Below are positions 33,203-59,304 of a DNA stretch of 64,000 bases, piece by piece. The stretch comes from Thermoplasmata archaeon (GTDB lineage: Archaea; Thermoplasmatota; Thermoplasmata; Lutacidiplasmatales; UBA184). Numbering within the stretch: the stretch's first letter is position 1; each line of letters opens with the position of its first letter. The stretch is from positions 256,156 through 320,155 of the forward strand of contig DATJWA010000027.1 of the NCBI GenBank assembly GCA_035501555.1. Reading direction: 5' to 3'. The notes beneath the pieces are model-generated. The model saw nothing but the letters and a program-made list of their open reading frames with translations. It was not told the origin of the DNA and made no database searches. The position numbers and the translations under genes were made by a program.

Positions 33203-33242
33203 CCCGGAGGGTGGAATTGCGAGAATGTTGAAATCCGCCACG
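33203..33242 (+). repeat. tRNA-3'-end-like hairpin repeat, degenerate copy.
   Basis: cggagggtggaattgcgagaatgttgaaatccgcca, compared against the consensus rTGTCGGAGGGGGrAC…GAATTsTTCAwATCCCCgAC. Confidence 0.45.
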
Positions 33243-33266
33243 CGGCCGCCGAGCGTGCCCTCAGGG

Positions 33267-33302
33267 CGGGATTAATCTAACAGGTGTCGGTTACAGCCCG
33301 TG
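33267..33302 (+). promoter_or_regulatory. Conserved paralog promoter block GGGCGGGATTAATCTAAC, 18 nt before the GTG start of cyclase A.
   Basis: The same block occurs upstream of five other paralogs at identical spacing. Confidence 0.6.
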
Positions 33303-35231
33303 GCCGAGACTCGGCGGCTCGCTGCCATCATGTTCACCGACATGGTGGGATTCACCGCGCTGGGCCAACGGAACGAAACGCTCTCGCTGGAGCTGCTCGA
33401 GGAGCAGCGAGCACTGCTCCGACCGATCTTCTCGCGGCACGGGGGCAAGGAGGTCAAGACCCTCGGAGATGGCTTCCTCGTGGAGTTCACGAATGCGCTC
33501 GAGGCGGTGCGGTGCGCCTACGAGATTCAGCGAGTAAGTCGCGAGTCAAACTACTCTCGTCCCTCGGACCGGCGGGTACTCCTCCGGGTCGGGGTCCATC
33601 TGGGAGACGTGGTGGAGGCGGACGGCGACATCTCCGGGGACGCAGTGAACGTTGCGTCGCGGATAGAGCCTCTCGCGGAAGCCGGAGGGGTTTGTATCAG
33701 TCGCCAGGTTTACGACCAAGTCCACAACAAGTTCGAGCTGCCACTAATGAGCCTGGGTCCACGCCGGCTCAAGAACGTAAGTACGCCCATCGAACTGTTC
33801 AAAGTGGGGATGCCCTGGACGGAAGGGGGTGGCGCCGGATTGTCCGAAGCCGACCGGAACCGGATTGCGATCCTTCCTCTCGCCAACTTCAGCCCAGCCC
33901 CCGGCGACGACTACTTCGCCGATGGCATGACAGATGAGATCATCTCCACCGTGTCGGGGATCAGTGGCCTCAGCGTGATCTCGCGCACCTCCGCGATGCG
34001 CTACAAGCAGTCCACGAAGAGTATGACCGAGATCGGACGCGAACTGAAGGCAGGAAAGCTGCTGGAAGGGAGTGTTCGGAAGTCCGGAAACCGGGTTCGG
34101 ATCACCGTCCAGCTGATCGACAGCGAAAGCGATGCCCATCTCTGGGCCAAGAGCTACGACGGCAGCTTGGACGACGTCTTCGAGACCCAGTCGGACATCG
34201 CGCGCAAGATCGCCGAGGCGCTGAAACTGCCCTCCCCTCGACCGGGGGGTCGGGCCACGAGTCCCGAGGTGCTTGCCCTCTGCCTTCAGGCACGCACGTT
34301 ATGGAACCGGTTCACCCCGGAAGCGAACGAGCAGGCGATCGTCCTGTACGAGGACGCGCTGAAGATCGACCCGGAATCCGCCCGTGCGATCGCCGAGCTT
34401 GCGGACTGTTACGCTTCCGCGGCGAACATCGGCTGGATGGACAAGAAAGAGGGTTACGAGAAGGCCCGGTCGCTGGCACGCCGTGCTCTCGAGCTGGACG
34501 AGTCGCTGCCCGAGGCCCACTTCGCCCTAGCTCACATGTTGATGGACGACGACTACCCCGCGGCGGAGATCGAGCTCAAGAAAGTCCTCTCACTGAACCC
34601 GAGCCACGCCGACGCCCATGAATGGTACGGAAGTGTTCTGCGGGGCCTCGGCCGCCTGGAGGAGTCGCTGGAGGAAGCCAGGAAAGCCTACGAACTGGAC
34701 CCGCTTCCGCCGGCGCGCGCCTTTTTCCTGGCCACAGAGTACTTCTTTGCCGGACGGAACGACGAAGCGCTCGCCATCTGCCAGAAGGTCATTCAGACCG
34801 AGCCCGGATACTCCCCGGCGTACTACGGCCGGGCCATTCTGAATGCCATCCGGGGATTGAGAGAGGAGGCCTACCGGGACCTGCGCAGTTACCGGAGGCT
34901 TACCAACGACATCCAGCACAAGAGCATCCAGGCCCGGATCGAAGCTCACCTGGGGAACAAGCAAGAAGCAACCCGGCTCATCGAGGAGACGCTGGCGCTC
35001 GTCGCCGCGAGCAACTCCCCGAAGGCTTGGAGCGACAGCGACCAGCTGTCGTACACCTATGCCCTAATCCAGGATCGAGAGCGGTTCTTTCCGTTCGTGG
35101 AATATTTGATTGATCACAAACTCATGAGCCCCGGTGAACTTCGGGACCCCTCGTACCAGAACATGGCGGGGGATCCTCGGTTTCCGGAACTGCGCAGAAA
35201 GCTTCGGGCGTCGTATGGGATCCCCGACTGA
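33300..35231 (+). CDS. Class III adenylate/guanylate cyclase (CHD) – TolB-N-like – TPR protein (paralog A, C-terminal subtype 1).
   Basis: GTG start. RRLAAIMFTDMVGFT, KTLGDGFL and GDAVNVASR cyclase motifs. ILPLANFS…YFADGMTDE TolB-N-like segment, then TPR repeats. Confidence 0.9.
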   Translation: MAETRRLAAIMFTDMVGFTALGQRNETLSLELLEEQRALLRPIFSRHGGKEVKTLGDGFLVEFTNALEAVRCAYEIQRVSRESNYSRPSDRRVLLRVGVHLGDVVEADGDISGDAVNVASRIEPLAEAGGVCISRQVYDQVHNKFELPLMSLGPRRLKNVSTPIELFKVGMPWTEGGGAGLSEADRNRIAILPLANFSPAPGDDYFADGMTDEIISTVSGISGLSVISRTSAMRYKQSTKSMTEIGRELKAGKLLEGSVRKSGNRVRITVQLIDSESDAHLWAKSYDGSLDDVFETQSDIARKIAEALKLPSPRPGGRATSPEVLALCLQARTLWNRFTPEANEQAIVLYEDALKIDPESARAIAELADCYASAANIGWMDKKEGYEKARSLARRALELDESLPEAHFALAHMLMDDDYPAAEIELKKVLSLNPSHADAHEWYGSVLRGLGRLEESLEEARKAYELDPLPPARAFFLATEYFFAGRNDEALAICQKVIQTEPGYSPAYYGRAILNAIRGLREEAYRDLRSYRRLTNDIQHKSIQARIEAHLGNKQEATRLIEETLALVAASNSPKAWSDSDQLSYTYALIQDRERFFPFVEYLIDHKLMSPGELRDPSYQNMAGDPRFPELRRKLRASYGIPD

Positions 35232-35369
35232 GCTCGCGATCGGTCATCCGTAACCAGACCGAGACGCTCCGAGAGGATCCGGATTCGACGCGGAGTAGAC
35301 TTCGGGATGTTATACACCGAGAGTGCCTAGCACGTAGGGGCCGGCAACGGTCTCAGGGGCAGTGCCACC

Positions 35370-35651
35370 ATGTCGGCATACTTGGTCGCGGACGTCGAGT
35401 GGAAGGACGAGGAGCAGTTGGCAAAGTACGGCGAGGGGCATTCCGAGCTCCTCGCCAGGTACGGTGGCCGGATCTTGGTCGGGTCTAAGGACGTCGAAGT
35501 TGTCGAGGGTAGCTGGAAGCCTCGCCAGCTGGTGATCTTCGAGTTCCCAACTCGGGAGGCGTTCCACGCTTGGTACGACTCGGCCGAGTATGCCCCTCAA
35601 CTCGCCCGACGCAAGCAGCATGCGGACTCGAACGTTGTAGTGGTCGAGTGA
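35370..35651 (+). CDS. DUF1330 family protein.
   Basis: MSAYLVADVEWKDEEQLAKYGEGH…, 93 aa. Confidence 0.8.
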   Translation: MSAYLVADVEWKDEEQLAKYGEGHSELLARYGGRILVGSKDVEVVEGSWKPRQLVIFEFPTREAFHAWYDSAEYAPQLARRKQHADSNVVVVE

Positions 35652-35684
35652 TGGGGTCGATCGAACGGCGACGATTGCCGAAAC

Positions 35685-35725
35685 GTGTCGGAGAGGGACC
35701 CAACTGAGTTCTTCCGCCTCCTAAG
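35685..35725 (+). repeat. tRNA-3'-end-like hairpin repeat.
   Basis: gtgtcggagagggacccaactgagttcttccgcctcc. Confidence 0.5.
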
Positions 35726-35841
35726 AGCGCGGCGCGGACGGATTCTGGGAGGGCTGAGACCCGGCCCAGTCTCCCTCGTCCGGTGCGGCGTCGGCGTGGA
35801 CGACCCAGGGGCGAACTGCCGATCCGGGCCAAACTGCCCAC

Positions 35842-35850
35842 TTTTATATT
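35842..35850 (+). promoter_or_regulatory. TATA box (TTTTATATT) 22 nt upstream of the peroxiredoxin ATG, implying a leaderless transcript.
   Basis: Seen in the sequence. The position is the archaeal −26/−27 convention relative to a transcription start site at or near the ATG. Confidence 0.55.
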
Positions 35851-35871
35851 GGAAAGCCCAAGGCGGACCTA

Positions 35872-36387
35872 ATGACGAACGCCGGCGGGAGCCGAACGAT
35901 CTCGATCTTGAAGCCGGGGATCCGGGCACCTGATTTCACGCTCAAGAGTACTCCTGATCAGAGCGTGTCTCTTCGAGATTTCCGGGGCCGGCCGGTCGTG
36001 ATCGCCTTCTATCCTGCCGACTGGAGCCCAGTCTGCAGCGACCAGATGGGACTTTACGCGCAGGTCATGCCCGAGTTCAAAAAATTCAATGCAGAAGTAC
36101 TGGGGATTTCCGTCGACGGTATATGGACCCATCTCGCCTTCGCGAAGGACCGCAAGCTGAACTTCCCGCTCCTCTCTGACTTCGAACCGAAGGGTGCGGT
36201 TTCCCGTTCGTACGGGGCATACGAGGCGCACGTCGGCGAGTCCGCGCGAGCTCTCTTCGTGGTTGATGCAAGAGGCTCCATCGCGTGGAGCATGCTCTCT
36301 CCCGACGGCGTCAATCCCGGAGCGGACGGGATTCTCTCCGCGCTCGAACGGCTCGAGCGAGACGCCCCTCGGAGTAAGTCCGCATGA
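35872..36387 (+). CDS. Peroxiredoxin (AhpC/TSA family).
   Basis: FYPADWSPVC peroxidatic Cys motif. 171 aa. Confidence 0.85.
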   Translation: MTNAGGSRTISILKPGIRAPDFTLKSTPDQSVSLRDFRGRPVVIAFYPADWSPVCSDQMGLYAQVMPEFKKFNAEVLGISVDGIWTHLAFAKDRKLNFPLLSDFEPKGAVSRSYGAYEAHVGESARALFVVDARGSIAWSMLSPDGVNPGADGILSALERLERDAPRSKSA

Positions 36388-36938
36388 CGCAGCAATACCA
36401 AGCGCCGCGACTCACGGTGCCCGTCGGGGCCAGGGACCATGCGGAGGGCCCACCGGGGGCCCGGGTAGTTCTCCTCGAGTACGGGGACTATCAGTGCCCG
36501 TACTGCGGGGCAGCCTACCCCATCGTGAAACGGATCCAGAAGCACCTGGGGGAGAGGCTGCGATTCGTCTTCCGGAATTTTCCGATCACGAACGCCCACC
36601 CCCAGGCGCAGTGGGCAGCAGAACATGCGGAGGCGTCGGCCGCTCAGGGTAGGTTCTGGCAGATGCACGACTACCTCTACGAGCACCAGGATTCGTTAGG
36701 GGACGAGGCGTTCTTCGCCCGGTTCGAACAAAAGCTCAAGCTCGACCTGGCCCGACTCGACCGGGAAGTCGCCCAGCATGTCCACCTGGACCGGATCCAG
36801 GAGGACTTCATGAGCGGGGTACGAAGCGGCGTGAACGGAACGCCAACGTTCTTCATCAACGGCGTGAGGTACGACGGATATCCCGAGTTCGCACCTCTGG
36901 TTTCCGCGCTCGAGACGGCCGAAAAGGGGTCGCGATAA
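36384..36938 (+). CDS. DsbA-like thioredoxin-fold thiol:disulfide oxidoreductase.
   Basis: CPYC active site. ATGA overlap with the peroxiredoxin gene. Confidence 0.85.
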   Translation: MTQQYQAPRLTVPVGARDHAEGPPGARVVLLEYGDYQCPYCGAAYPIVKRIQKHLGERLRFVFRNFPITNAHPQAQWAAEHAEASAAQGRFWQMHDYLYEHQDSLGDEAFFARFEQKLKLDLARLDREVAQHVHLDRIQEDFMSGVRSGVNGTPTFFINGVRYDGYPEFAPLVSALETAEKGSR

Positions 36939-37194
36939 CCTCGAGTCCACCGGCCGGGATACCGCCCCCTTTCAACGAGCGGGGCCGGCGGAGTCTGTCG
37001 GAGGGGGGCGACGTGATTTTTAAACCCTCCACTTAGGGGTGCCGGGGTTCAGACGAGTTGGGACCGGCACTGGGCGAGCGAGGGCTAACACCCCTGACGA
37101 TCGACGGAGCCGCTCCCGTCTTCCCGGCGGCGCGACGGGGAGCGATCGTCGGCCCGGGGTCGGAGTATTAACGAAGATTTCGGTGGCCTCGGCC

Positions 37195-37833
37195 ATGAGT
37201 TCACCCCCGACGGGCGGAACCCATGAGTCGAGGTTCTCCGCCCAGGACTACGCGCAAGCGATCCGAGCGGACTACATCGCGGGAGAGACCCCATGGGACA
37301 CAGGAGTCCCCAACCCCGAACTTATTCGGGTGGTCGAGAAGGGAGGATTCCCGGGAACCGCTGTACTCGAAATGGGTTGCGGAACGGGGACGAACTCGGT
37401 CGAGCTTGCTCGACGAGGTTATCGCGTCACCTCGGTGGACCTCGCGGACGTCGCGATCTTCAAGGCGCGGGAAAAGGCGAAAAGCGCGGGCGTGAACGTC
37501 GACTTCCGCGTCGGCGACCTCACGCAGACGGAACTCGGCGGTCCGTACGATTGTCTTCTCGACATTGGCGTCTATCATGGGATCCGGAATCGAGACCTGA
37601 CTGGATTTCTGCGCGCCGTGGTGCGTCTGTCTCGACCGGGAACGAGGTGGCTATGTATCGCCGGGAGCGCCAACTCACCCCAGCGAGATGGCCCGCCAAT
37701 GGTCCGGGAAGAAGAGTTTCGCGCGGAGCTCGGGTCGGCCTTCAAGATCCTCGACGCGCACGAGTTCACCTATCTGGAGCTCGCACCGAACTTTCGACCG
37801 CCGTTCTGGTCGATCCTGATGGAACGTCGTTGA
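37195..37833 (+). CDS. Class I SAM-dependent methyltransferase.
   Basis: Internal ATG 37195. VLEMGCGTGTN motif I and the DIGVYH motif. Confidence 0.75.
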   Translation: MSSPPTGGTHESRFSAQDYAQAIRADYIAGETPWDTGVPNPELIRVVEKGGFPGTAVLEMGCGTGTNSVELARRGYRVTSVDLADVAIFKAREKAKSAGVNVDFRVGDLTQTELGGPYDCLLDIGVYHGIRNRDLTGFLRAVVRLSRPGTRWLCIAGSANSPQRDGPPMVREEEFRAELGSAFKILDAHEFTYLELAPNFRPPFWSILMERR

Positions 37834-37965
37834 GGAAACCTGGGAGTTCCGACGCTTCTCGAGGCGTGAGCGCTCTCCGGCTCGGTGACAGGTCGAGCTG
37901 GGCGCCTGGCGGGACCCGTCTCCCGACCGAATCTCCCGACGGGCTTGCACCCGCTCGGAGCGGAC

Positions 37966-38463
37966 CTACTTCCGATTCTCGGGGAGCTCTCGTGCGGCGC
38001 GTTCGAGGCTGCCCAGGCACTCGGTCCAGCCGGCGACGAGCCGAACATAGATGTGCGGAGCGCCGCGCTGGAGTTCCTCCAGCTTCTCGTGGACGACGTA
38101 GACGTGCGTCCGACCCTCGGACTCCGGTCGAAGTCGGATCGTGACCAGCGTGTCGAAGTACTCTCCCTCCTTCTCCGGTTCGGTCCCCACAAACGCCCAG
38201 CGGTACACAAGTTCCCGCGGCGGGTCGATCTTAAGGAAAAGTCCTTCGAACTTTCCCGTGCTGACTCCATTCTGTGAGTGCCAGACCTCGATCCGGCCAC
38301 CTACCCTGGGCTCTACCGTGACCTGCTCAACGATGAGGTCGCTGGGCGCGATCCACTGGCGGAGCAGGTCCGGTTCAAGAAAGGCACGGAAGACCTGATC
38401 GGGCGGTGCGTGCAGGATCCGCTCCACACGAACGACGGCCGTCGGCTCGTCCGCTTGGATCAT
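37966..38463 (-). CDS. SRPBCC/AHSA1-like protein, co-transcribed with ArsR.
   Basis: Internal ATG 38463 (MIQADEPTAVVRVERILHAPPDQVFRAF…). Confidence 0.8.
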   Translation of the reverse strand: MIQADEPTAVVRVERILHAPPDQVFRAFLEPDLLRQWIAPSDLIVEQVTVEPRVGGRIEVWHSQNGVSTGKFEGLFLKIDPPRELVYRWAFVGTEPEKEGEYFDTLVTIRLRPESEGRTHVYVVHEKLEELQRGAPHIYVRLVAGWTECLGSLERAARELPENRK

Positions 38464-38789
38464 CGCGTTTCCCGCCCTTCCGGGCGGGCCCCTTTCGTGA
38501 GGACCTCGTCCATCCGGGTCAGGCCCTCGTCCCAGAACCGCTGGTAGTACGAGAGCCACTCGGAAGCCTCTCGAAGCGGCCGGCCCTGAATCGAGTACAA
38601 GTGCTGACGCCCCGCCTTTCGAAGACTGACCACGCCCGAGTCCAGGAGCAGCCGCAGCTGCTTCGAGACGGAGGGCTGGGACATGCGGGTCCGACCCACC
38701 AGGTCGTTGACCGACCGCTCACCTTGACGGAGGGCCTCGAGGAGGTGGCGCCGCGACGGTTCTGCGAGGATCTGGAAGACGTCGCTCAC
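38460..38789 (-). CDS. ArsR/SmtB family transcriptional regulator.
   Basis: LAEPSRRHLLEALRQGERSVNDLV…MSQPSVSKQLRLL. Its stop overlaps the start of the SRPBCC gene. Confidence 0.9.
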   Translation of the reverse strand: MSDVFQILAEPSRRHLLEALRQGERSVNDLVGRTRMSQPSVSKQLRLLLDSGVVSLRKAGRQHLYSIQGRPLREASEWLSYYQRFWDEGLTRMDEVLTKGARPEGRETR

Positions 38790-38890
38790 AGAAAACGAAT
38801 GCCTAAAGGGATATATGTCCTTTTGTACATGTGTTCGACCGGGGCGGGGTACCGGTATCGCGAACCGCCGAAGACTGGGGTGTCAGGAAG

Positions 38891-39481
38891 ATGCGAAAAG
38901 TGACGGCGAATGTGTACATGACTCTGGACGGCCGCGGCGAGTTTCCGAAGTACCCGGAGAAGAAACGGAAGCTGACGGAGCCCAACGCGCTCTTCCGCTA
39001 CATGTGGTACGACCGGTTCGACGATGTCACGACGGTCGTCATGGGCCGTCGATCCTTCCTAGGTCACCAGCGCACCTGGAGCGAGAAGGCGGTAAAGCCC
39101 GGTGAGGCGACCTGGCTACTCGACTACCGACGGTATCTTGACCGCGTGGAGAAGATTTGCCTCTCCCACCGCCTCAAGTCCACCGACTGGGAGAACTCGA
39201 GGATCCTGAGCGGAGACCTTGCCAAGATCCTGAGCAAACTGAAGCGGGAGAAAGGCGGAAACATCATGCTGGAAGGCGGACCCGCGGTGGTCCGTGAATG
39301 CCTGAGGCGCAATCTCGCCGACGACTACTGGTTCTTCGTCATGCCCGTGGTGTACGGGAGAGGTCCTCGATATTGGGACCCGATGAAGACCCAGACCACG
39401 CTCAACCTCATCGAAACGAAGCCCGGAGAGGACAAGGAGATCATGCTCCACTACGAGGCGGTCAAGGGATTCTCGCCCTAA
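38891..39481 (+). CDS. Dihydrofolate reductase family (RibD_C-like) protein.
   Basis: Internal ATG 38891 (MRKVTANVYMTLDGRGEF…). Divergent from arsR. Confidence 0.8.
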   Translation: MRKVTANVYMTLDGRGEFPKYPEKKRKLTEPNALFRYMWYDRFDDVTTVVMGRRSFLGHQRTWSEKAVKPGEATWLLDYRRYLDRVEKICLSHRLKSTDWENSRILSGDLAKILSKLKREKGGNIMLEGGPAVVRECLRRNLADDYWFFVMPVVYGRGPRYWDPMKTQTTLNLIETKPGEDKEIMLHYEAVKGFSP

Positions 39482-39711
39482 GCGGTCCTCAGCCCTCCGC
39501 AACTGCTCCGGTCCAACCTCTTCACCGCCCCCCCCCCAGTTGCATCGTTCGGGGACGATCCGGTTGACAATCTCGAGGCCTTCCGTCGCAGCGTCGCGGG
39601 ATGTGCCCTGGACGGGCTCCCGCAGGGTGGATTTCGGTCGCGCTGCCAACCCGGCCGCACGGGCAGGAGGCTGGAACGGTAGTTGCGACCCCTCGACCTC
39701 GAGTCACCATA

Positions 39712-39752
39712 GTGTCGGAGGGGGACACTGCTAAACTGCTCACATCCCCGAT
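39712..39752 (+). repeat. tRNA-3'-end-like hairpin repeat.
   Basis: gtgtcggagggggacactgctaaactgctcacatccccgat. Confidence 0.6.
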
Positions 39753-39893
39753 CTGACCGAGACCGGGAACACGCGAGTACAGGGCCGCACGTGATCAAGA
39801 CATCGCGATGGCAAGACGACCCGACGCGGTCGGGATTTCTGGCCGCCAGGTATGCCTGATCAGGTAGCCCGCCCGGCGCCGCCTCGATGAACT

Positions 39894-39929
39894 GGGGCTT
39901 AATCTAACCGAAGACGGTTACGCCCTGTG
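39894..39929 (+). promoter_or_regulatory. Conserved paralog promoter block GGGGCTTAATCTAAC upstream of cyclase B.
   Basis: Identical motif and spacing as in the other paralogs. Confidence 0.6.
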
Positions 39930-43344: not shown

Positions 43345-43385
43345 GTGTCGGAGGGGGACACTACGGAATTCTTCGTATCATCACC
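43345..43385 (+). repeat. tRNA-3'-end-like hairpin repeat.
   Basis: gtgtcggagggggacactacggaattcttcgtatca. Confidence 0.55.
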
Positions 43386-43907
43386 ATACGGCGGGCGGAC
43401 GGCCGCTCCGTCCCTATGGCTCGAAGCAAGAAGGCGGGCGCTCGGGGCCACCCAATCTCAAATGCCCTCGACTTTAGATCTGCGTGATTGAAAGCAGCGC
43501 GGGTTCGCTTCCCACATTCCGGGTTGAGTGACCTTTCCCGGAAGTGTCTTCCAGAATGGCAAAGTCCCCTGTCGCGAAACGTCGCCCCTCTCCGTCACTG
43601 GCCTTAACCTCGAGAGTTTCTCGGAGCACGGAAAATATCTGGCGGGTTGGCGATGGGTGCGGTTGCCCGTACCAACCCACCGGCACCACGAGAAACAGGT
43701 GGCGCTCGGCCTTCATCGGAGGCGAGACGCAGAGGGGAGGCGCTGGTGGGGCGAAATCCACGGAAGAAGTAGTAACCACGACCTCGGCAAAATGGGACTC
43801 GCTTTGCGCGTCCGAGACCAACCGACCCATCGTGATATCCGGACATTGCGGCATGCTATGCTCCGAGCCGATTGTGCTCGACCCGGCAGCGAAGGCGGGC
43901 CAAGAAG

Positions 43908-43947
43908 GTGTCGGAGGGGGGAACTACGAATGGTTCAAATCCCTCAC
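43908..43947 (+). repeat. tRNA-3'-end-like hairpin repeat.
   Basis: ggtgtcggaggggggaactacgaatggttcaaatccctcac. Confidence 0.6.
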
Positions 43948-44026
43948 AGGGCAAATGCGGCCCAGTGGCCACTTTCGACCCGCGAATGAACCCGGTCTGA
44001 GTACGTGGCCAGAGCCCTCCGTGAAG

Positions 44027-47095: not shown

Positions 47096-47238
47096 AGATG
47101 GTTTCCCGGCCTCTTCCCCTACGTTGGGCCGGGCGTCCCGATCCTGATAGTTCGAAGTGGAGAATAGTTCTCAGCAGTAAGGTCCCCGGCCGGCAGGCGG
47201 GGTCCGACGAACGTTCCTCGGTGAGACATCGGCCGAAG

Positions 47239-47279
47239 ATGTCGGAGGGGGGAACTCTGGAATTGTTCAAATCCCCCAC
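47239..47279 (+). repeat. tRNA-3'-end-like hairpin repeat.
   Basis: atgtcggaggggggaactctggaattgttcaaatcccccac. Confidence 0.6.
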
Positions 47280-47414
47280 GTGAGGTCGGGGGTCGGTCGG
47301 AACCCCCCCGTACACAAGTCCATCGCTAGAAACCGGTCCGACCAGCCGGATCCAAGCCGGCCGTCGGGGAACCCGCCTAATTCGAACCCTTCTTCAAAAG
47401 GAGCGGAAGGTATG

Positions 47415-49364: not shown

Positions 49365-49403
49365 CACGACCCGATTGTGCCCCCGTTCGGCAAGCGACCC
49401 TTT

Positions 49404-49440
49404 TTCGGAAGGGGGGTTGACGGGTTCAAATCCCCGCCAG
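49404..49440 (+). repeat. Divergent T-arm-like element (GGGTTCAAATCCCCGCC) after a T-run. It lies between convergent genes D and H.
   Basis: ctttttcggaaggggggttgacgggttcaaatccccgccagagagg. It carries a GTTCAAATCC T-loop signature on the plus strand. Confidence 0.4.
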
Positions 49441-49461
49441 AGAGGAGGCGGGGTCCAGGAA

Positions 49462-50814
49462 TCACCGCGATACCGCGAGGAACGTCTCCCAGTTCCCCTC
49501 CACGCCCTTGAACCGGCGGGACCCCCGTTCCTCAAACCGCACCTCTGAGCCTACGGATAGGTCACGGACAGTTCGTGAGGTCACGATCTCGCCGCCGCCA
49601 GCGGAATCGCAGATCCGGGACGCAAGGTGGACCGCCATCCCGACGACGTCGTTGTCTGCCACGAGGCACTCACCGGTGTGAACTCCGGCCCGAAGCTCGA
49701 GGCCCCGTTGTTTCGCCTGGTCCCGAGCGGATTGTGCGAAGCGTACCGCCCGGGTCGGTCCGTCGAAGGTGGCGAGGAACCCATCGCCAGTCGTCTTCAC
49801 CAATCGACCCCGGAAGCGGGTGATTTCGGCGCGGGACCCAGCGAGGAAGGACTCCAGAATCTCCCTCCAACTGTGATCACCCAGCCGGGAGGCGAGTCGG
49901 GTCGAATCGACGATGTCGGCGAAGACTACGGTCTTGAGTACTCGGTCCTCGTCAGGCAAACCCGATGGTAGGCTGGTGAGGAACGATTTCTGGGCACGGA
50001 GGGAGGCGGCGCTCGCTTCGGGGTTCGCCCAGAAGAAGTGGTCTCGTCCCGGAATGGAAACAATCCGAGACCCAGCCACGCGGGAGGCGACGTAATCCGC
50101 GTTCTCCTCACGAACGGCCCTGTCGCCCGGGCATTTCAGGATGAGCGTCGGGACGTGAACCGCCGGAAGAGTCGCCCGAACGTCAATTTCAAGGTTCATC
50201 CGCGCGAGGGAGGCGGCCGCGGAGGGCGACGAACCAAACCGGATCACCCGCCCGTACCATCGTTTGAAATCGGGATCCGCTACCCGGCTCGGGGCCTGTG
50301 TCGACAAAAGTCGGTCGATGTGCGGAGGCGTCCCCCAATCCTCGTCCGAAAGTCGGATGGACTCCTCCACCTCTTCGCGCGTGGGGGCGAAGGCGAAGTC
50401 GGGAGCCCACGCACCTCGGACCGTCGGAGCGATAAGGATGAGGCCCAAGGTTCGTTCCGGGTAGGTCGCCGCGAACAGGAGGGCCATCGCCGCCGTGTCG
50501 GTGGCTCCAAAAATCACCGCACGATGACTCTTCGCCGCGTCCATGACGGCCCGGAGATCATCCATCCGGTCCTCGAGCGTCGGCGTCCCAACCGCTCGGT
50601 CCGAGAGACCCACACCGCGCTTGTCCCACAGGATCACCCGGGCGGCGCTCCCTAGATCCCGGAAGTATCCCGCGACCGCTGGCTGCTCCCAGACGAGTTC
50701 GAGATGAGAGATTGCCGTACGACCGTAGACCAGGTCGACGGGACCCGCCCCGAACACCTCGTAGGCGATGCGAAGGTCGCCGCTACGGGCGTACCGGACT
50801 TCGGGAACCTCCAT
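49462..50814 (-). CDS. Alpha/beta-hydrolase – class III cyclase fusion (LipJ/Rv1900c-like, paralog H).
   Basis: N-terminal alpha/beta-hydrolase fold. C-terminal CHD (FADIVDSTRLASRLGD…KTTGDGFLATF…GECLVADNDVVGMAVHLASRI). Confidence 0.9.
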   Translation of the reverse strand: MEVPEVRYARSGDLRIAYEVFGAGPVDLVYGRTAISHLELVWEQPAVAGYFRDLGSAARVILWDKRGVGLSDRAVGTPTLEDRMDDLRAVMDAAKSHRAVIFGATDTAAMALLFAATYPERTLGLILIAPTVRGAWAPDFAFAPTREEVEESIRLSDEDWGTPPHIDRLLSTQAPSRVADPDFKRWYGRVIRFGSSPSAAASLARMNLEIDVRATLPAVHVPTLILKCPGDRAVREENADYVASRVAGSRIVSIPGRDHFFWANPEASAASLRAQKSFLTSLPSGLPDEDRVLKTVVFADIVDSTRLASRLGDHSWREILESFLAGSRAEITRFRGRLVKTTGDGFLATFDGPTRAVRFAQSARDQAKQRGLELRAGVHTGECLVADNDVVGMAVHLASRICDSAGGGEIVTSRTVRDLSVGSEVRFEERGSRRFKGVEGNWETFLAVSR

Positions 50815-50925
50815 CGCCCACCGGCCGGAATCGAACGCGAACGGGGTATATCGACTGTCCGGGGGGCCGATGCGAAGAGACCTTTGGCCCCCGTGCGAAG
50901 ACGACCCCTCGGAAATCTCAAAAGA

Positions 50926-50964
50926 GGTCGGAGGGGGGAACTCCCAGTTTGTTCAAGTCCCCCA
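50926..50964 (+). repeat. tRNA-3'-end-like hairpin repeat.
   Basis: ggtcggaggggggaactcccagtttgttcaagtcccccac. Confidence 0.55.
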
Positions 50965-50975
50965 CCGAAGTACGG

Positions 50976-51713
50976 TCACTCAATCTCCTTCGCTGACCCG
51001 TCGCGCGCGCGGAAGGAATTCCATCCATCGGTAGCGTCCAAACTGAGCGTCCCCTTCAACAGCGCTCGCTTCGTACCGTTCGAGACGGCGAACTCGACCT
51101 CCAGCGGGTGTGAGAGGGCCTCGTGACCGGCCGCTTGGAGGAGACCGTCCCGGATCGCCGGATTGCGGGTCCAATGAATCTCAGTGAAGGCGCCGGCCAA
51201 AAGCGCCGGCTCGTAGGCCACCTCCACCCCTCCCACTTTGGCCCGAAGTTCCCGCACGACCTCAGCGGAACAGTTGTAGAGGAACAATCGATGGGAAGCG
51301 CGCCGAGAGCTCGCGCGAGCGATGTACGAGGATTCGACGGCCTCGCGTTGCTTCTCGCCCATCGGCCAGAGGAAGGTGTAGGCGAGTCGTGTCCGGGGGG
51401 ATCGTCCGCCCCCACGCGACCCACTCCGCCATCGCTGCACCTGGCGCAAGCGGGCGCGAAGGTTCGGAGTGTCGGCTTTCCAGCTACCGTGGGAGGCCGG
51501 CGCCCATTCGGCGAGCCCGCGTTCGATGTCGCTCGCGGACCAGTCGGGATGCTGCCGCTCAAGAACAAAGACAAGTCGCTCTAACTCCGCCCGGTCCGCC
51601 TTCGTCACGGCCCGCCCTGCGACAGTTGTCGCACTCCTTCTGGAGCGCCGGAACGCGTTCCCTCCGATAAGAAGCCCGTTGGTCGCGCGACAGCCGGACC
51701 GAAACGTCGACAC
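50976..51713 (-). CDS. Hypothetical protein (weak support).
   Basis: ORF with partly protein-like composition in its C-terminal half. No recognisable domain. Confidence 0.3.
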   Translation of the reverse strand: MSTFRSGCRATNGLLIGGNAFRRSRRSATTVAGRAVTKADRAELERLVFVLERQHPDWSASDIERGLAEWAPASHGSWKADTPNLRARLRQVQRWRSGSRGGGRSPRTRLAYTFLWPMGEKQREAVESSYIARASSRRASHRLFLYNCSAEVVRELRAKVGGVEVAYEPALLAGAFTEIHWTRNPAIRDGLLQAAGHEALSHPLEVEFAVSNGTKRALLKGTLSLDATDGWNSFRARDGSAKEIE

Positions 51714-52197
51714 AATTGGTTGTTGTGGCTAGAATGCCACGAAGAGAGAGAACATGGAGGCGAAAGCGGTGGTGGACGCGGCGGGGGCGATCGTGGGACT
51801 GTGCCGAATGGGCGTGGTGGCGGCGATGACCGACACCCTCCGGGGGACGGAGGTAGTTTTGGGCATGGCCCGAGGATTCCTGGCAACGACGATCGGGGGG
51901 AGATGTGGTCCGGCCAGCTCCTGCCCGAGATTCCCGTATTAAACGACCGAGACTCCCTCGTCGGTCCGGGGCCCCTCGCCGAAGCGAGGGGCCCCGATGC
52001 AGCCGGTCGACGTACTCGAGGAAGGGAGAGGCGTACAGCCGGCGGCGCTAGGGCGCTTAATGCTGTGAAGGCTATTCATGGGATGTGCTCCCGACTCCCG
52101 CTCCCGGTCGATTGGCCGCCTTCCTCGGGCGTCGAGCCTGGCGGTTTCCGGCGTCCGATGACTTCCCCTCCCTGATTGCTCCTCCGGCGGTTGGGTC

Positions 52198-54660: not shown

Positions 54661-54745
54661 CAATCCGTTGATTTCGACCTCCCGTCGACGGTGAACCCCC
54701 CCTTTCGGAGAGGAGACCGGGATTGCGAAGGGCGTTGCACGATGA

Positions 54746-54786
54746 ATGTCGGAGGGGGACATTACTGAATTGTTCATATCCCCGAC
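54746..54786 (+). repeat. tRNA-3'-end-like hairpin repeat.
   Basis: atgtcggagggggacattactgaattgttcatatccccgac. Confidence 0.65.
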
Positions 54787-54927
54787 TTGGGGGTCAGCGA
54801 GAAAGCACGATTGCGAGACCACCGGTAGTCGGGTTATCGCGGTTACCGGACTACCCGGAGCGGCTGGGCTCCCGACACGCCAGATGCCCACAGTCGACCA
54901 GGTAAATCGCGGGCTTTTCCGCGAACC

Positions 54928-54963
54928 GGGGCTTAATCTAACGAATACCGTTTCCGGGCCATG
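54928..54963 (+). promoter_or_regulatory. Conserved paralog promoter block GGGGCTTAATCTAAC upstream of cyclase F.
   Basis: Same motif and spacing. This gene uses an ATG start. Confidence 0.6.
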
Positions 54964-56892
54964 GCCTCCAGTCGCCGACTCGCCGCCATCATGTTCACGG
55001 ACATGGTCGGCTCCACGGCTTCAGCGCAGGCCAATGAGGCAAGGGCCCTCCGGTTGCGGGACGAGCAGGCCGGACTGGTCCGTCCCCTCTTCGCCGCCCA
55101 TCAAGGGCGCGAAGTCAAGTCAATGGGCGATGGCTTCCTAGCCGAGTTCGATAGCGCACTCCGAGCCGTGCAGTGTGCGATTGACATCCAACAGCATTTG
55201 CACGAACGGAATTCCCAGCCAGGCGTGGCACCGATTCAACTTCGTATTGGAGTTCATTTGGGGGACGTCGAAGAACGCGAGCGCGACATCTTCGGCGACG
55301 CAGTCAACATCGCCTCACGCATCGAGCCGCTCGCGCCCCCCGGAGGCGTCTGCATCTCGGGAGAGGTATCCAGTCAGATCAGAAACAAGATCCCGAACCG
55401 GCTCGAGAAACTGCCGCCGACGGCGCTGAAGGGGTTGCAGGCATCGATCGACATCTATCAAGTGGTATTGCCTTGGACGGAAGCGGGCGGCGCTGGGTTG
55501 TCCGAAGTCAATCGGAACCGGATCGCGATCCTTCCCCTCGCCAACTTCAGTCAAGCCGCCGGCGACGAGTACTTCGCGGACGGGATGACAGACGAGATCA
55601 TTTCGACGGTGTCAGGGATCAGCGGCCTCAGCGTGATCTCGCGGACATCTGTAATGAGATACAAACAGACCTCCAAGAGCATGACCGAGATCGGACGCGA
55701 ACTAAAGGCAGGAAAGCTCCTGGAAGGGAGCGTTCGGAAGTCCGGAAATCGGGTGCGGATCACCGTCCAACTGATCGACGCCGAGAGCGACGCCCATCTC
55801 TGGGCCCAGAGCTACGACGGGAGCATCGACGACGTCTTCGAGACCCAGTCCGAAATCGCTCGCAAGATTGCAGAGGCGCTGAAGCTACCCTCGCCTCGGG
55901 GCGGAGGCCGGGCTGAGAGTCCTGAGGTCTACCCGCTCTGCCTCCAGGCCCGCACATTGTGGCATAAGTTCACCCGCGAAGCGAACGAGCAGGCGATGCT
56001 CCTGTTGGAAGGCGCCCTAAAGATCGATCCCGAGTCCGCTCGGGCGACGGCCGGGCTCGCGGATTGTTACGTTACCGCAGCTAACGCCGATTGGGTTGAG
56101 AAGGACGAAGGTTACGGCAAAGCTAGAACGCTGGCCAGACGTGCGCTCGAGCAGGACGCCTCGCTGCCCGAGGCCCATTTCGCCCTAGGCCATGTGTTGA
56201 TAGTGGACGACTACCCCGCAGCCGAGGCCGAACTCAAAAAAGCGCTCACGCTGAACCCCAGTCACGCGGACGCCCACGAGTGGTACGCGGAAATCCTGCG
56301 AGGCATGGGTCGAGTGGCTGAGGCGACGCGGGAAGTCGAGAGGGCCCTCGAACTGGACCCGCTCCCGCCCAGTCGGGCGTTTTTCTTGGCGACCCAATAC
56401 TACTTCGAAGGGCGTAATGACGAGGCGATCGCAGTCTGCAACAAGATCATCCAGACGGAGCCGGGGTATGCCTGGGCGTATGCCGGGCGGGCCGTGCTGA
56501 CTTCCATCAACGGAGAGAGGGAGAGAGCCTACCGGGATTTGCAAACCTACAGACGACTACAGCGGGACGAGATCGCGTACAAGAGCCTCCAGGCTCGGAT
56601 CGAAGCTCACCTGGGAAACAAGGAAGAAGCGTCACGCCTCATCGATGAGGTGCTCGCGCTCGAGGCAGCGAGTGAATCCCCGAATGCGCGAAGCGAAACT
56701 TACCAGCTATCCTTTGCGTATGCCCTCATCGATGATCGAGCGAGATTCTTTCCGTTCGTGGAAGGTCTGATCGACCACAATAAGATGGATCCCGGTGAAC
56801 TTCGGGACCCCGCGTACCAAAACATGGCGAGTGATCTTCGATTCGCATCCCTCCTCCAGAAACTCCGCAAATCCTACGGCATTTCCAACTGA
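54961..56892 (+). CDS. Class III cyclase (CHD) – TolB-N-like – TPR protein (paralog F; mosaic of a D-like CHD and an A-like C-terminus).
   Basis: The CHD is ~85% identical to paralog D. The C-terminal 450 aa are ~80% identical to paralog A. Confidence 0.9.
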   Translation: MASSRRLAAIMFTDMVGSTASAQANEARALRLRDEQAGLVRPLFAAHQGREVKSMGDGFLAEFDSALRAVQCAIDIQQHLHERNSQPGVAPIQLRIGVHLGDVEERERDIFGDAVNIASRIEPLAPPGGVCISGEVSSQIRNKIPNRLEKLPPTALKGLQASIDIYQVVLPWTEAGGAGLSEVNRNRIAILPLANFSQAAGDEYFADGMTDEIISTVSGISGLSVISRTSVMRYKQTSKSMTEIGRELKAGKLLEGSVRKSGNRVRITVQLIDAESDAHLWAQSYDGSIDDVFETQSEIARKIAEALKLPSPRGGGRAESPEVYPLCLQARTLWHKFTREANEQAMLLLEGALKIDPESARATAGLADCYVTAANADWVEKDEGYGKARTLARRALEQDASLPEAHFALGHVLIVDDYPAAEAELKKALTLNPSHADAHEWYAEILRGMGRVAEATREVERALELDPLPPSRAFFLATQYYFEGRNDEAIAVCNKIIQTEPGYAWAYAGRAVLTSINGERERAYRDLQTYRRLQRDEIAYKSLQARIEAHLGNKEEASRLIDEVLALEAASESPNARSETYQLSFAYALIDDRARFFPFVEGLIDHNKMDPGELRDPAYQNMASDLRFASLLQKLRKSYGISN

Positions 56893-56929
56893 GATCTCGT
56901 TCGGTGGTTCGGCGCCCTGGCTTGGAAGG

Positions 56930-56970
56930 GTGTCGGAGGGGGACACTACTGAATTCTTCATATCCCCGAC
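56930..56970 (+). repeat. tRNA-3'-end-like hairpin repeat.
   Basis: gtgtcggagggggacactactgaattcttcatatccccgac. Confidence 0.65.
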
Positions 56971-57114
56971 AACCCCCGTTTCTCGATGAAAGCCCGATTA
57001 CGCAACTACCTGTAGTCGGGAAAGTGCGATTGTGAGACTACACGAAGCGCTCGGCCTTCTAGGGGTTTGGATACATCAAATCAACTGGGCGGAACAAGAC
57101 CTCCGCGTTGAGCC

Positions 57115-57150
57115 GGGGCTTAATCTAACAAGTGCCGTTCCCGGGGAGTG
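57115..57150 (+). promoter_or_regulatory. Conserved paralog promoter block GGGGCTTAATCTAAC upstream of cyclase G.
   Basis: Same motif and spacing. Confidence 0.6.
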
Positions 57151-59073
57151 GCCGCGACCCGCCGCCTTGCCGCCATCATGTTCACCGACACAGTCGGCTA
57201 CACCGCCTCCGCGCAGGCGGACGAGGGCCGAACGCTCGACCTGCTCCGACAGCAGGCGGAGCTGGTTCGTCCGCTCCTGGTGGTCCACCAGGGCCGAGAG
57301 ATCAAGACAACCGGGGACGGTTTCCTGGTCGAGTTCGACAGCGCACTCAAGGCTACCCAGTGTGCGGTGAGCATTCAGCGACGAATCTACGAGCGAAACT
57401 CCGAAGGCGGCCTCGCCCCGATCCAGATCCGGATCGGCATCCACTTGGGAGATGTCGTGCAGAGTGGCGCGGACATCCTCGGAGACGCGGTGAACATCGC
57501 GGCTCGGATCGAACCGATTGCCGAGCCCGGGGGCATCTGCCTGTCGGGCGCCGTTTACGAGCAAGTCCGGAACAAGGTACTCGAGAAGTTCGAGAAGCTC
57601 CCACCTGCCGCGCTCAAGGGGGTGGAGGCGCAGATCGACCTTTACCGAGTGGCGCTGCCGTGGAACGCTCTTCCGTCCTCAGCACACGACCTGGTTCCCG
57701 CGGGGATTGCCGTCCTCCCATTCTCCAACATCAGTCCGGATCCGAACGACGCCTACTTCGCAGACGGGCTGACCGAGGAATTAATCTCCGTGCTCTCTCA
57801 GTTTCGAGAGCTTCGGGTGATTGCGCGGACCTCGGTGACGCCCTACAAATCCACCTCAAAGGGGGTCAGTCAAATCGGGGCTGAGCTGGGCGTTTCCTCG
57901 ATCCTGGAAGGGAGTGTGCGAAAGGCGGGGAATCAGCTTCGGATTACTGCACAGCTGATCGATGTGCCTTCCCAGGGACACGTCTGGGCCAACTCCTACA
58001 ACCGAGAGCTCGATGATGTTTTCGTGGTCCAAGCCGAGCTCGCGAAGCAAGTCGCGGAGGCGCTGAAGATCGAACTCCAAGCCACCGAGAGGGCGAAACT
58101 CGAAGCGCGGCCGGCGGTGAGGCAGGACTCGTATCTCGCCTATCTGAAAGGACGCACGCTCCTGCACCGGTGGTCGCCGGAGACACTCAAGGCGGCGAAA
58201 GAGCAGTTCGAGCTTGCGATATCTCTGGATGGCCGAAATGCGTCGGCTTATTCAGGACTATCCGAGGTAATTCTACTGGACGGACTTTGGTTTTCTAGCA
58301 GTCCCCGAGTGGAGTGGAACGACTCAAGCCGGAAACTCGCCACTCGGGCGTTAGAAATCGACCCGAATCTCGCGGAAGCCCACTGCTCGCTCACCTTGGT
58401 TTTGTGGGACGAGTACCAATATGTGGAGTCCGAAACAGAGTTCAATCGAGCAACAGCTCTCAACCCCAGCCTCGCCGTAGCACACCGACACTACGGCCTC
58501 TTCCTGGCGGAGGAAGCTCGACCCGACGAGGCCCTACGCGAATTCGAGCTGGCCGAGGCCTTGGACCCGCTGTCAATAATCGTCCTCGCCAATCATGGCA
58601 TGTTGCTCATTCGTCTCCGGCAGCTGGACAAAGCGAGAGTCGCGATTGAGAAGCTGGGCCGGTTGGACGAATCCACCAGAGCATACCACGCCCTCCTGGG
58701 TGACTACTTCTGGGCGAAGGGCGATCACGCAGCGCAAATCGAACAACTTGACCTTACAATCAGAAGTTCGCCACAAGACCCACTGAATCCGATGTTTCGC
58801 GCGGCGGTCTATGCCTCGGCGGGCCGAGCGGACCAAGCACGGGAGTTGCTTCCCTTAGTAGAAGCGATGCCAGAAACCGCTCTCAAGTTCGCTACTCTTA
58901 TGGAAATCCACGCGGACCTGAACGACCTAGATGAATGCTTTAGGGTCATCGAGAAGGCAGTCGACGCTCACAAGTTCGGTGCGATCATATTGTTCCGGCT
59001 GGACCCCAGCTACGAGCAGGTGCGTCAGGACCCAAGGTTCAAGAGGATTCTTCAGAGGATGCACCTCGCCTGA
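57148..59073 (+). CDS. Class III cyclase (CHD) – TolB-N-like – TPR protein (paralog G, subtype 2).
   Basis: GTG start. Cyclase motifs. IAVLPFSNISPDPNDAYFADGLTEE segment. TPR repeats. Confidence 0.9.
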   Translation: MAATRRLAAIMFTDTVGYTASAQADEGRTLDLLRQQAELVRPLLVVHQGREIKTTGDGFLVEFDSALKATQCAVSIQRRIYERNSEGGLAPIQIRIGIHLGDVVQSGADILGDAVNIAARIEPIAEPGGICLSGAVYEQVRNKVLEKFEKLPPAALKGVEAQIDLYRVALPWNALPSSAHDLVPAGIAVLPFSNISPDPNDAYFADGLTEELISVLSQFRELRVIARTSVTPYKSTSKGVSQIGAELGVSSILEGSVRKAGNQLRITAQLIDVPSQGHVWANSYNRELDDVFVVQAELAKQVAEALKIELQATERAKLEARPAVRQDSYLAYLKGRTLLHRWSPETLKAAKEQFELAISLDGRNASAYSGLSEVILLDGLWFSSSPRVEWNDSSRKLATRALEIDPNLAEAHCSLTLVLWDEYQYVESETEFNRATALNPSLAVAHRHYGLFLAEEARPDEALREFELAEALDPLSIIVLANHGMLLIRLRQLDKARVAIEKLGRLDESTRAYHALLGDYFWAKGDHAAQIEQLDLTIRSSPQDPLNPMFRAAVYASAGRADQARELLPLVEAMPETALKFATLMEIHADLNDLDECFRVIEKAVDAHKFGAIILFRLDPSYEQVRQDPRFKRILQRMHLA

Positions 59074-59202
59074 CCCGCCACACTCCGCGCCTTGCCACCA
59101 GTACACAACCCACCCGTTTCCGGAGGGGCAGATGGCGGGTTCAAATCCCTTACACCCGTAGGGTCAAGTGTTGGCGTTTCTCGGCGAGAAATTGCCAAAG
59201 GA

Positions 59203-59304
59203 TGTCGGAGGGGGGATTTGAACCCCCGACCCCAGGATCTCTCCCGGGACGCCCGCGGCGGCCCGCTATGAGTCCCGTGCTCTACCAGGCTGAGCCACTC
59301 CGAC
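59203..59304 (-). tRNA. tRNA with CAU anticodon (elongator Met or Ile2). It contains a ~16-nt intron in the anticodon loop and an unusually long region before the T-arm, possibly a second intron.
   Basis: Minus-strand read: GTCGGAG-TG-GCTCAGCCTGGTAGAGC-A-CGGGA-CTCATA[GCGGGCCGCCGCGGGC]G-TCCCG-…-GGGGGTTCAAATCCCCC-CTCCGAC-A. Canonical acceptor, D-arm and T-arm are present. No CCA is encoded. Confidence 0.6.

Follow-up and report, generated by a model that had tools for sequence, protein, structure and literature searches.

Repeats beside a tRNA(CAU) gene of a Thermoplasmata archaeon as probable recombination sites of an array of integrase-less gene cassettes

Why does a short repeat, beginning with the last nucleotides of a tRNA gene in antisense, separate one small gene unit after another beside that same tRNA gene? 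The question is raised by a 64,000-nt stretch of DNA from a Thermoplasmata archaeon (GenBank assembly GCA_035501555.1, contig DATJWA010000027.1, positions 256,156 to 320,155 of the forward strand), hereafter the window. Here, eleven units of 0.6–3.8 kb each form an array that ends at a tRNA(CAU) gene. The GC content is 62.5% in the array (33.2–59.2 kb) and 72% in its flanks. The answer proposed here is that the locus is probably a tRNA-anchored array of integrase-less cassettes, whose repeats would be recombination sites served by an unlinked recombinase. The nearest public DNA belongs to uncultured Thermoplasmata genomes assembled from soil and peat, and the DNA of the window is contained in an ENA metagenome contig of 142.9 kb (ERZ27256612 k141_3116965).

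The 12-mer TGTCGGAGGGGG, with up to one mismatch allowed, has 12 matches in the window, where chance would give 1.28; this number is reached in none of 100 shuffled sequences. The repeat family that the original prediction described beside tRNA(CAU) is therefore real. The exact 12-mer is seen at 36996, 39713, 43346, 43909, 47240, 54747 and 56931, and at 59203 in the tRNA gene. As had been claimed, the first 12 nt of the repeat are the antisense of the last 12 nt of tRNA(CAU), with identity at 12 of 12 nucleotides. The copies were scored with a nhmmer profile built from related loci; these loci and further collected contigs carry L numbers below. Type-1 repeats consist of the core and a conserved right arm. 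From the tRNA gene outward, the sites are as follows.

59203..59304, minus strand: tRNA(CAU) gene (Rfam RF00005, 57 bits, E 1e-9), the anchor of the array, with its 3' end towards the cassettes
59203..59214, plus strand: core TGTCGGAGGGGG inside the tRNA gene, corresponding to the discriminator base, the 3' acceptor strand and the start of the T-stem, antisense
59117..59202, plus strand: left ("P") arm of the last cassette, abutting the tRNA gene, with the type-2 element TTTCCGGAGGGGCAGATGGCGGGTTCAAATCCC at 59117-59149 and the trailer TTTCTCGGCGAGAAATTGCCAAAGGA at 59177-59202
56930..56972, plus strand: type-1 repeat, 58.2 bits, left boundary of the tRNA-proximal cyclase cassette
54746..54790, plus strand: type-1 repeat, 56.8 bits
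50926..50966, plus strand: diverged type-1 repeat (GGTCGGAGGGGGGAACTCC...), 18.6 bits
49401..49440, plus strand: type-2-like variant site (TTCGGAAGGGGGGTTGACGGGTTCAAATCCCCGCCA), partial profile match at 49424-49439, 11 bits, left boundary of the inverted hydrolase-cyclase cassette
47239..47284, plus strand: type-1 repeat, 46.4 bits, preceded by a P-arm trailer at 47213-47239
43908..43951, plus strand: type-1 repeat, 39.6 bits
43345..43387, plus strand: type-1 repeat, 43.6 bits
39712..39757, plus strand: type-1 repeat, 35.9 bits
36995..37034, plus strand: degenerate repeat with an exact core (12-mer at 36996) and an eroded right arm, 4.5 bits
35685..35724, plus strand: degenerate repeat, core with one mismatch, 14.7 bits, the junction where L021 enters its tRNA
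33203..33242, plus strand: very degenerate, most distal repeat-like element, 1.9 bits, E 8

By profile, six copies are strong (36–58 bits), two are weaker (15–19 bits) and three, at 49404, 36995 and 33203, are marginal. All of them are on the plus strand, in agreement with the single orientation reported earlier, and none lies outside 33.2–59.2 kb. Two minus-strand matches with one mismatch, at 16489 and 20004, are not family members by profile search. The earlier list of copies holds for the strong ones; it omitted the copy at 36995 in spite of its exact core, and it included 49404 and 33203, which are only marginal. The trailing CCCCGAC said to be shared with the tRNA is exact in the copies at 54746 and 56930, and in these two only. 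The length of about 40 nt describes the core and right arm, but the conserved module is longer and includes a left arm, TTTCTCGGCGAGAAATCGGCGAAAGAT.

The units share one order: core, 28-nt right arm, a spacer of variable class, a TATA promoter, cargo gene or genes, and left arm. The core corresponds to the last 12–14 nt of tRNA(CAU), antisense. The right arm, ACACTACTGAATTCTTCATATCCCC, adjoins the core and is not derived from tRNA(CAU). The consensus of the whole repeat is GTGTCGGAGGGGGACACTACTGAATTCTTCATATCCCCGACA. The left arm is often TTTCTCGGCGA(G/T)AAATCGGCGAAAGAT, based on about 40 aligned copies, and contains two TCGGCGA direct repeats 11 nt apart. The left-arm sequence TTTCTCGGCGAGAAATCGGCGAAAGAT also stands directly before the tRNA end at 59177-59202 of the window. 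The same arm precedes the tRNA end in L002, L009, L010, L019, L026 and L029 as well, and internal repeats in many loci. It is missing beside the tRNA in L015, L022 and L028, indicating that the arm is a part of the cassettes, not of the tRNA gene.

The left arm is sometimes headed by a related element, type 2 (TTTCCGGAGGGG...GGGTTCAAATCCC), which lies about 50–90 nt upstream of the core in many left arms. It is seen in the window at 59117-59149 and 49401-49435, and upstream of the tRNA end in L009, L010, L026 and L029. It could be an accessory binding site or a fossil of an older site. About 20 copies are seen of a third, palindromic site, type P, in which CGGGGGTTCAAATC comes after GTCGGAGGGGGTATTCGAACCCCC. 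This site corresponds to the antisense T arm and acceptor strand followed by the sense T arm, and contains a 24-nt tRNA copy. Type-P sites take the same array positions as type-1 repeats, and examples are the following.

L005, 3057 and 6917: type-P sites
L018, 5244: type-P site
L022, 4849: type-P site
L028, 2198 and 3325: type-P sites
L047, 3017: type-P site
L051, 14257: type-P site
L053, 11990: type-P site
L069, 3208: type-P site

Type 1 can be read in the same way as type P, that is, as an antisense tRNA end that finishes in a sense half of the T-loop and T-stem, TTCA(A/T)ATCCCC.

Some spacer classes hold repeated GAAAGCGNGATTGCG-like motifs. In one class of right-arm spacer, a GAAAGCGNGATT(G/A)CG-like motif recurs two or three times in direct orientation at intervals of about 25 nt, and these repeats could be arm-type protein-binding sites.

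54790-54870 of the window: spacer with GAAAGCGNGATT(G/A)CG-like repeats
56975-57050 of the window: spacer with the same kind of repeats
around 7010-7080 of L031: spacer with the same kind of repeats

The promoter sequence TTAATCTAAC occurs 6 times in the window, where 0.2 occurrences are expected. Each begins exactly 28 nt before a cyclase start codon, implying TATA boxes that drive leaderless mRNAs.

33272, 39899, 44032, 47420, 54933 and 57120, plus strand: cassette-borne TATA-type promoters TTAATCTAAC

Public gene calls put some cyclase starts 30 nt downstream, at 57178 and not 57148, and at 33330 and not 33300 in two of five contigs. Such starts would break the 28-nt regularity.

How the units may be exchanged is suggested by the places where genomes cease to be alike. 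On one side of the tRNA gene stands the gene below, and on the other side the array begins.

59331-60179, minus strand: ribosomal protein S3Ae gene (Pfam)

The cyclase and DUF1330 cassette at 33309-35697 matches L021 1188-3577 at 85% identity, up to GTGTCGGAG(A/G)GGG, and this is level with the housekeeping flank shared with L021 (85.9%). Past the core, L021 continues into its tRNA body, as the window does from 59215 onward; the window at this junction continues into the repeat arm and has 23.5 kb of cassettes before its own tRNA. L021 also has a good repeat at 1022-1060, the position equivalent to 33203 of the window. From the other side, window 60111-59202, which reaches from S3Ae to the final tRNA base, is matched by L091 at 99.9% identity, and past this point L091 is unrelated. 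L089 is 97% identical down to 59179, 24 nt past the tRNA, and then differs; its tail is the same as in L053, which carries a different 14-kb array there. L002, L015 and L036, compared with one another, show 88–94% identity on the tRNA-S3Ae side and have nothing in common on the cassette side. The breaks are thus found at both the right and the left edges of the 12-nt core, which places the exchange inside the core.

Internal boundaries behave similarly. Many inter-genome alignments begin within 5 nt of a repeat start, seven of them at 39708-39713 and eight at 54744-54747, and others begin at 56925-56929, near the repeat at 56930. The cassette of AhpC and DsbA is 82% identical in L005 and 85% in L006, and its homology with L005 stops at 37001, in the repeat at 36995. 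The inverted hydrolase-cyclase cassette is 85% identical in L006 and 79% in L028; its homology with L006 stops at 50937, inside the core of the repeat at 50926, and L006 has a degenerate type-1 repeat at the position equivalent to 49401-49440. Both cassettes have different neighbors in the other genomes. The DUF1330 and RibD_C cassettes also recur elsewhere. A cyclase-AAA_16-TPR cassette, again with other neighbors, is 84.8% identical in L030 over 3.3 kb, the homology ending at 47283. The housekeeping DNA of the genome bin of L030 (L009) is only 73.3% identical to that of the window, and this sequence contrast, which depends on correct metagenomic binning, hints at horizontal transfer of the cassette.

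Cassette order differs between genomes, and the tRNA-proximal unit differs even between near-identical strains. In the distal array, no strain variation was seen in five other contigs, which are collinear at ≥99.6% and differ in their genes only by gene calling. Several metagenome assemblies, represented by contigs of 1.2–3.1 kb (L089, L090 and L091), are interrupted no more than about 300 nt from the tRNA 3' end. These assembly breaks are consistent with strain-level heterogeneity of the proximal cassette.

Could homologous recombination and duplication alone account for such differences? A conserved intergenic element, protein-binding or regulatory, would then travel with the units by unequal crossing-over or by double crossovers after DNA uptake. 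The repeats and arms offer 40–100 bp of homology, no recombinase was found near the arrays, and many cassettes are paralogous cyclases with a common right arm and promoter, consistent with local duplication. We consider this explanation rather unlikely. It leaves unexplained why the element starts with exactly the last 12–14 nt of the tRNA, and why arrays abut one tRNA in a single orientation. The tRNA junction shares the core only (up to about 19 nt, in L002 and L015), yet the breaks are precise and the tRNA is intact. Besides, unrelated cargo genes bear the same site.

Is the association with this tRNA general? An exact-pattern scan of one genome per species yielded 31 stretches, 28 of them from Thermoplasmata and often several per contig, and a metagenome scan added 45 contigs. 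In a profile search of the collected DNA, 107 repeats reached 25 bits or more. They are spread over 64 loci, and mixed orientation was seen in 0 of the 64. In 34 of 34 repeat-tRNA pairs (23 loci), the repeat is antisense to the orthologous tRNA(CAU) and lies on its 3' side, usually by S3Ae. Eight contigs exceed 270 kb, and in six of these the 8-kb stretches matched by the strict motif contain the tRNA or a tRNA fragment, or lie directly beside one. A chromosome of 2.18 Mb has a sole strict-motif match, in the stretch holding the tRNA, and in CAVVLW010000006.1 the two matched stretches adjoin each other, with the tRNA at their end. The original prediction would have been refuted by a motif found everywhere and without relation to tRNA loci. 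This is not the outcome: on large contigs, the strict motif is mostly confined to the tRNA(CAU) locus.

These distributions bear on another proposal, that of a tRNA-derived transposable element resembling a miniature inverted-repeat transposable element (MITE) or a short interspersed nuclear element (SINE), inserted repeatedly into intergenic DNA. The repeat is short, non-coding, multi-copy, tRNA-related and present in many genomes, all of which suit such an element. The single orientation in 64 of 64 loci, with the copies always 3' of the tRNA, and the restriction of the strict motif to one locus on six of the eight large contigs, Mb-scale ones included, do not. Neither terminal inverted repeats nor target-site duplications were found at the boundaries, and it is cassette-sized blocks, not the lone repeat, that vary between genomes. 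The MITE or SINE option is hence extremely improbable.

Several other candidates were set aside. No repeat copies were found in viral contigs. The sole viral match to the tRNA-end pattern, in an IMG/VR sequence (L079 1-420), is a bacterial-type long-arm tRNA beside a prophage tyrosine integrase and is unrelated. It has the same acceptor and T-arm sequence, indicating that short matches to the tRNA end can arise from tRNA conservation alone. In L013, L016 and L017, which are bacterial, the pattern is matched by chance. A primer-binding site of a retroelement does not fit either: the core is preceded by AGG or AGA, where pairing with CCA would require TGG; a reverse transcriptase is absent, and the exchange is at the DNA level.

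The repeats had been described as hairpins, with a terminator or RNA-stability function as one option. An RNA element at mRNA 3' ends, be it a tRNA-like processing signal, a terminator or a stability hairpin, would agree with the position of the repeats, 33–230 nt downstream of plus-strand genes and in the same orientation, and with a T-loop-like TTCAAATCC accompanied by G/C runs able to pair. The folding data do not bear this out. The z-scores of the repeats against shuffles range from +1.0 to -1.9 as RNA and from +0.3 to -1.5 as DNA. Among 97 distinct family members, compensatory changes in stem pairs number 0. The G of CCCCGAC is variable (G in 37, A in 28, C in 23 and T in 6 of the 97), and its presumed partner is invariant. 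No T-run follows the stem. Rfam at E ≤10 over 32–59.4 kb gave no match to the repeats, the tRNA family included, and returned only chance matches for the non-tRNA parts (c-di-GMP-II riboswitch and mir-42). Neither covariation nor stability above background, by which a structured RNA would be recognized, is seen, and the hairpin label is not sustained for RNA or for DNA.

What is conserved is the sequence itself: in about 100 copies from many species, the core hardly varies and the right arm shows strong conservation, in contrast to the flanks, although this measured conservation is inflated, the loci having been gathered with a pattern that requires conserved motifs. Further, inter-genome homology starts at the repeat and runs into the downstream gene, indicating that the repeat belongs to the downstream unit and not to the upstream mRNA, and the tRNA junctions show exchange at the DNA level. 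An RNA function is thus very unlikely to be the explanation.

The array is also polar. In the window, the repeat score declines with distance from the tRNA (rho -0.85, p 0.0016). The GC content at third codon positions (GC3) climbs with this distance towards the host value (rho 0.76, p 2e-6), a gradient partly confounded with gene family as the cyclase genes cluster near the tRNA. GC3 is about 0.72 beside the tRNA, about 0.8 at 33–40 kb, 0.81–0.91 at 16–33 kb and 0.90–0.94 in the flanks; the host level of about 0.9 is reached by 16–25 kb. This polarity fits an array in which the youngest cassettes are nearest the tRNA. Homologs of genes at 9–33 kb (ABC, MFS and prenyltransferase-like) occur within the arrays of other genomes, so that the island may extend well beyond the recognizable repeats.

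The erosion of repeats with distance from the tRNA would also be expected of scars, that is, of integrase-carrying plasmids or proviruses that lost most of their genes and left decaying attL and attR sites with no present function. Tandem tRNA integration followed by integrase loss is documented in archaea, in a review of archaeal tyrosine recombinases that notes tandem integration and describes no cassette arrays (PMC8371274). It is also documented in tycheposons, whose serial integration at a single tRNA moves older elements inward, with partial copies of the tRNA remaining behind (bioRxiv 10.1101/2020.12.28.424599). The type-P sites, with their longer, 24-nt copy of the T arm and acceptor strand, point the same way. 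But the 28-nt right arm, which is not tRNA sequence, is near-identical in about 100 copies from genomes whose housekeeping DNA is only 73–79% identical. The units are 0.6–3.8 kb long, each with a promoter and usually one to few cargo genes (none in a 563-bp unit), and no remnants of integrase, replication or capsid genes were seen in them. Scars without present function are therefore quite improbable. The earlier suggestion of eroded att-like scars from serial integration was partly right: the breakpoints at the core edges and the constant position at the same tRNA 3' end agree with serial integration, and the conserved non-tRNA arm makes the repeats more than eroded scars.

A tRNA-anchored array of cassettes moved by an unlinked recombinase is the reading that we prefer, and several results weigh against it. 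No recombinase was found among the 50 open reading frames (ORFs) of the window or in 40 array ORFs of related loci (Pfam), nor among the 25 commonest families listed for a further 114 ORFs (Pfam and PHROGs), in which single matches may hide; the last set also gave one transposase and one FtsK-like match. A tyrosine-recombinase motif scan of 607 kb was negative save for the positive control, the integrase of an unrelated viral contig; an earlier version of the scan was too strict, and it was the second that recovered the control. In these searches, neither an intI gene beside an attI site nor an integrase encoded by the element was found. No circular cassette or excision junction was seen, and no contig had overlapping ends. 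The tRNA identity spans only 12–14 nt and the GGGG/CCCC half-sites are about 21 nt apart, which is not a textbook core site of a tyrosine recombinase. Enzyme-free deletions between direct core repeats could explain some of the differences between genomes. The dependence of the L030 contrast on binning, the motif-based gathering of loci and the clustering of cyclase genes, given above with the respective results, count on the same side.

With these points in mind, we infer site-specific recombination through a circular intermediate, insertion mainly at the tRNA end, and the kind of recombinase. The cassette, as a circle with left arm, core and right arm, would recombine within the core. Its partner would be the core at the 3' end of tRNA(CAU), in the role of attB or attI, or an internal core. 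Insertion would regenerate the tRNA, and older cassettes would come to lie farther from it. Cassettes standing between two directly oriented cores would be excised or deleted when these cores recombine. Since neither the cassettes nor the DNA beside the array encodes the enzyme, it must be supplied in trans, and the likeliest candidate would be a tyrosine recombinase encoded elsewhere in the genome or on a helper element.

Which known systems does such an array resemble? Integrons, archaeal ones included, are alike in their small, mostly single-gene cassettes in one orientation with a conserved site per cassette, in their one fixed insertion point with older cassettes farther off, and in their diverse accessory cargo. 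Arrays without a neighboring integrase (clusters of attC sites lacking integron-integrases, CALINs) are common among them (Ghaly et al. 2022, PMC9668308), and the same paper on archaeal integrons mentions tRNA and Thermoplasmata 0 times. However, integrons use an attI site beside intI, whereas the array here uses the 3' end of a tRNA gene. The attC hairpin (R''-L''...L'-R', GTTRRRY) has no counterpart; the consensus contains neither GTTRRRY nor RYYYAAC boxes, and a hairpin is not supported. Integron cassettes are promoterless and depend on a common promoter (Pc), whereas six cassettes here carry their own TTAATCTAAC TATA promoter. An IntI-like gene, typical of integrons, was not found. Of four integron features, a single-orientation cassette array with contents varying between strains is thus present, and three (intI, attC and promoterless cassettes) are absent.

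Islands that target tRNA genes, such as those of the Islander type and the tycheposons of Prochlorococcus, are alike in integrating at the tRNA 3' end, regenerating the gene and leaving partial tRNA copies as direct repeats, and also in serial integrations that push older units inward and in scattered remnants. The corresponding marks are seen here: a tRNA 3' segment repeated at unit boundaries, an intact tRNA, differing occupancy in relatives and a break at the core. Their units are, however, large and multi-gene, with their own tyrosine recombinase and often replication or packaging genes, in contrast to 0.6–3.8 kb without a recombinase in the present array. The site also differs, being a dedicated, conserved sequence of 40 nt of which only 12–14 nt are tRNA-derived. 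In bacteria, cis-mobilizable elements (CIMEs), integrative mobile elements exploiting Xer (IMEX) and pdif modules carry recombinase-less cargo between recombination sites and are mobilized in trans. They use the att sites of a resident integrative element or the dif sites of XerC/D. The likeness lies in the trans-mobilized cargo; for the array here, no link to a known recombinase or to dif-like sites has been shown.

What do the cassettes carry? The genes of the window array, assigned with Pfam, are listed below.

33300, 47448, 54961 and 57148, plus strand: cyclase-TPR genes
39927 and 44060, plus strand: cyclase-AAA_16-TPR genes
52198, plus strand: AAA_16-TPR gene
49462-50814, minus strand: hydrolase-cyclase gene
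35370, plus strand: DUF1330 gene
35872, plus strand: AhpC gene
36384, plus strand: DsbA-like gene
about 37195-37833, plus strand: TPMT-like methyltransferase gene
38460-38789, minus strand: ArsR gene
38831, plus strand: RibD_C gene

Related arrays carry ABC and MFS transporters, regulators of the MarR, AsnC and ArsR families, alcohol dehydrogenase, epimerase, Pirin and DinB, as well as methyltransferases, an NHL propeller, and GvpD-like and Roadblock proteins. The cargo is diverse, and duplication of one gene is therefore insufficient as its source. The 563-bp unit at 43345-43908, between two good repeats, has no annotated gene and may be an empty or decayed cassette. In L035 (910-2634, minus strand), the protein encoded by one cassette joins a cyclic nucleotide (cNMP)-binding domain to a pyridine-nucleotide disulfide oxidoreductase and might serve the cyclase cassettes as an effector. 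Outside the recognizable array, a STAND-type AAA_16 and MalT-TPR protein is encoded at 12812-15184 (plus strand) of the window with a host-like GC3 of 0.91, and its architecture is akin to that of the cassette-borne AAA_16-TPR proteins.

The genes beside tRNA(CAU) encode S3Ae, an AAA ATPase and a VWA protein (Pfam), and the tRNA ortholog adjoins the S3Ae gene in at least 23 related loci. The anticodon loop of the tRNA is interrupted by a 30-nt intron. This tRNA and the S3Ae gene both identify the DNA as archaeal. ARAGORN in bacterial mode reports 0 tRNAs over the whole window; the gene is overlooked by bacterial-mode tRNA finders because of its archaeal intron. It has G1:C72 and is therefore not an initiator tRNA; elongator Met and Ile2 are both possible. 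About 1–9 kb to the left of the window start (L080 457-8195), a DUF87/HerA-like ATPase, an N6/N4 DNA methyltransferase and six proteins without a family are encoded between fibrillarin and orotidine monophosphate-decarboxylase genes. This cluster may be a mobile or defence element, and no integrase was found in it with PHROGs.

Taken one step further, the locus could be a distinct, independently evolved gene-capture platform of archaea, integron-like in its organization, with the 3' end of tRNA(CAU) as fixed insertion site, a dedicated 40-nt site that also exists in a palindromic form (type P), and an unlinked recombinase that moves promoter-bearing cassettes within and between soil Thermoplasmata. 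We put this forward tentatively, as a possibility somewhat short of an even chance. The architecture would be that associated with integrons, yet the site chemistry would be borrowed from tRNA-targeting integrases. A short, defined DNA site, core plus arm, would be at hand for finding the recombinase. On the practical side, arrays of this kind break metagenome assemblies exactly at the tRNA, as in L089–L091. If the proposal is true, Thermoplasmata of soil and peat keep a hot spot at which small accessory-gene cassettes are stacked and exchanged, with signalling cyclases and STAND-type proteins dominating the cargo beside redox enzymes, transporters and regulators. Why class III cyclase paralogs have expanded in this lineage would thereby be explained, and archaea would have a second, independent route of cassette-based gene capture.

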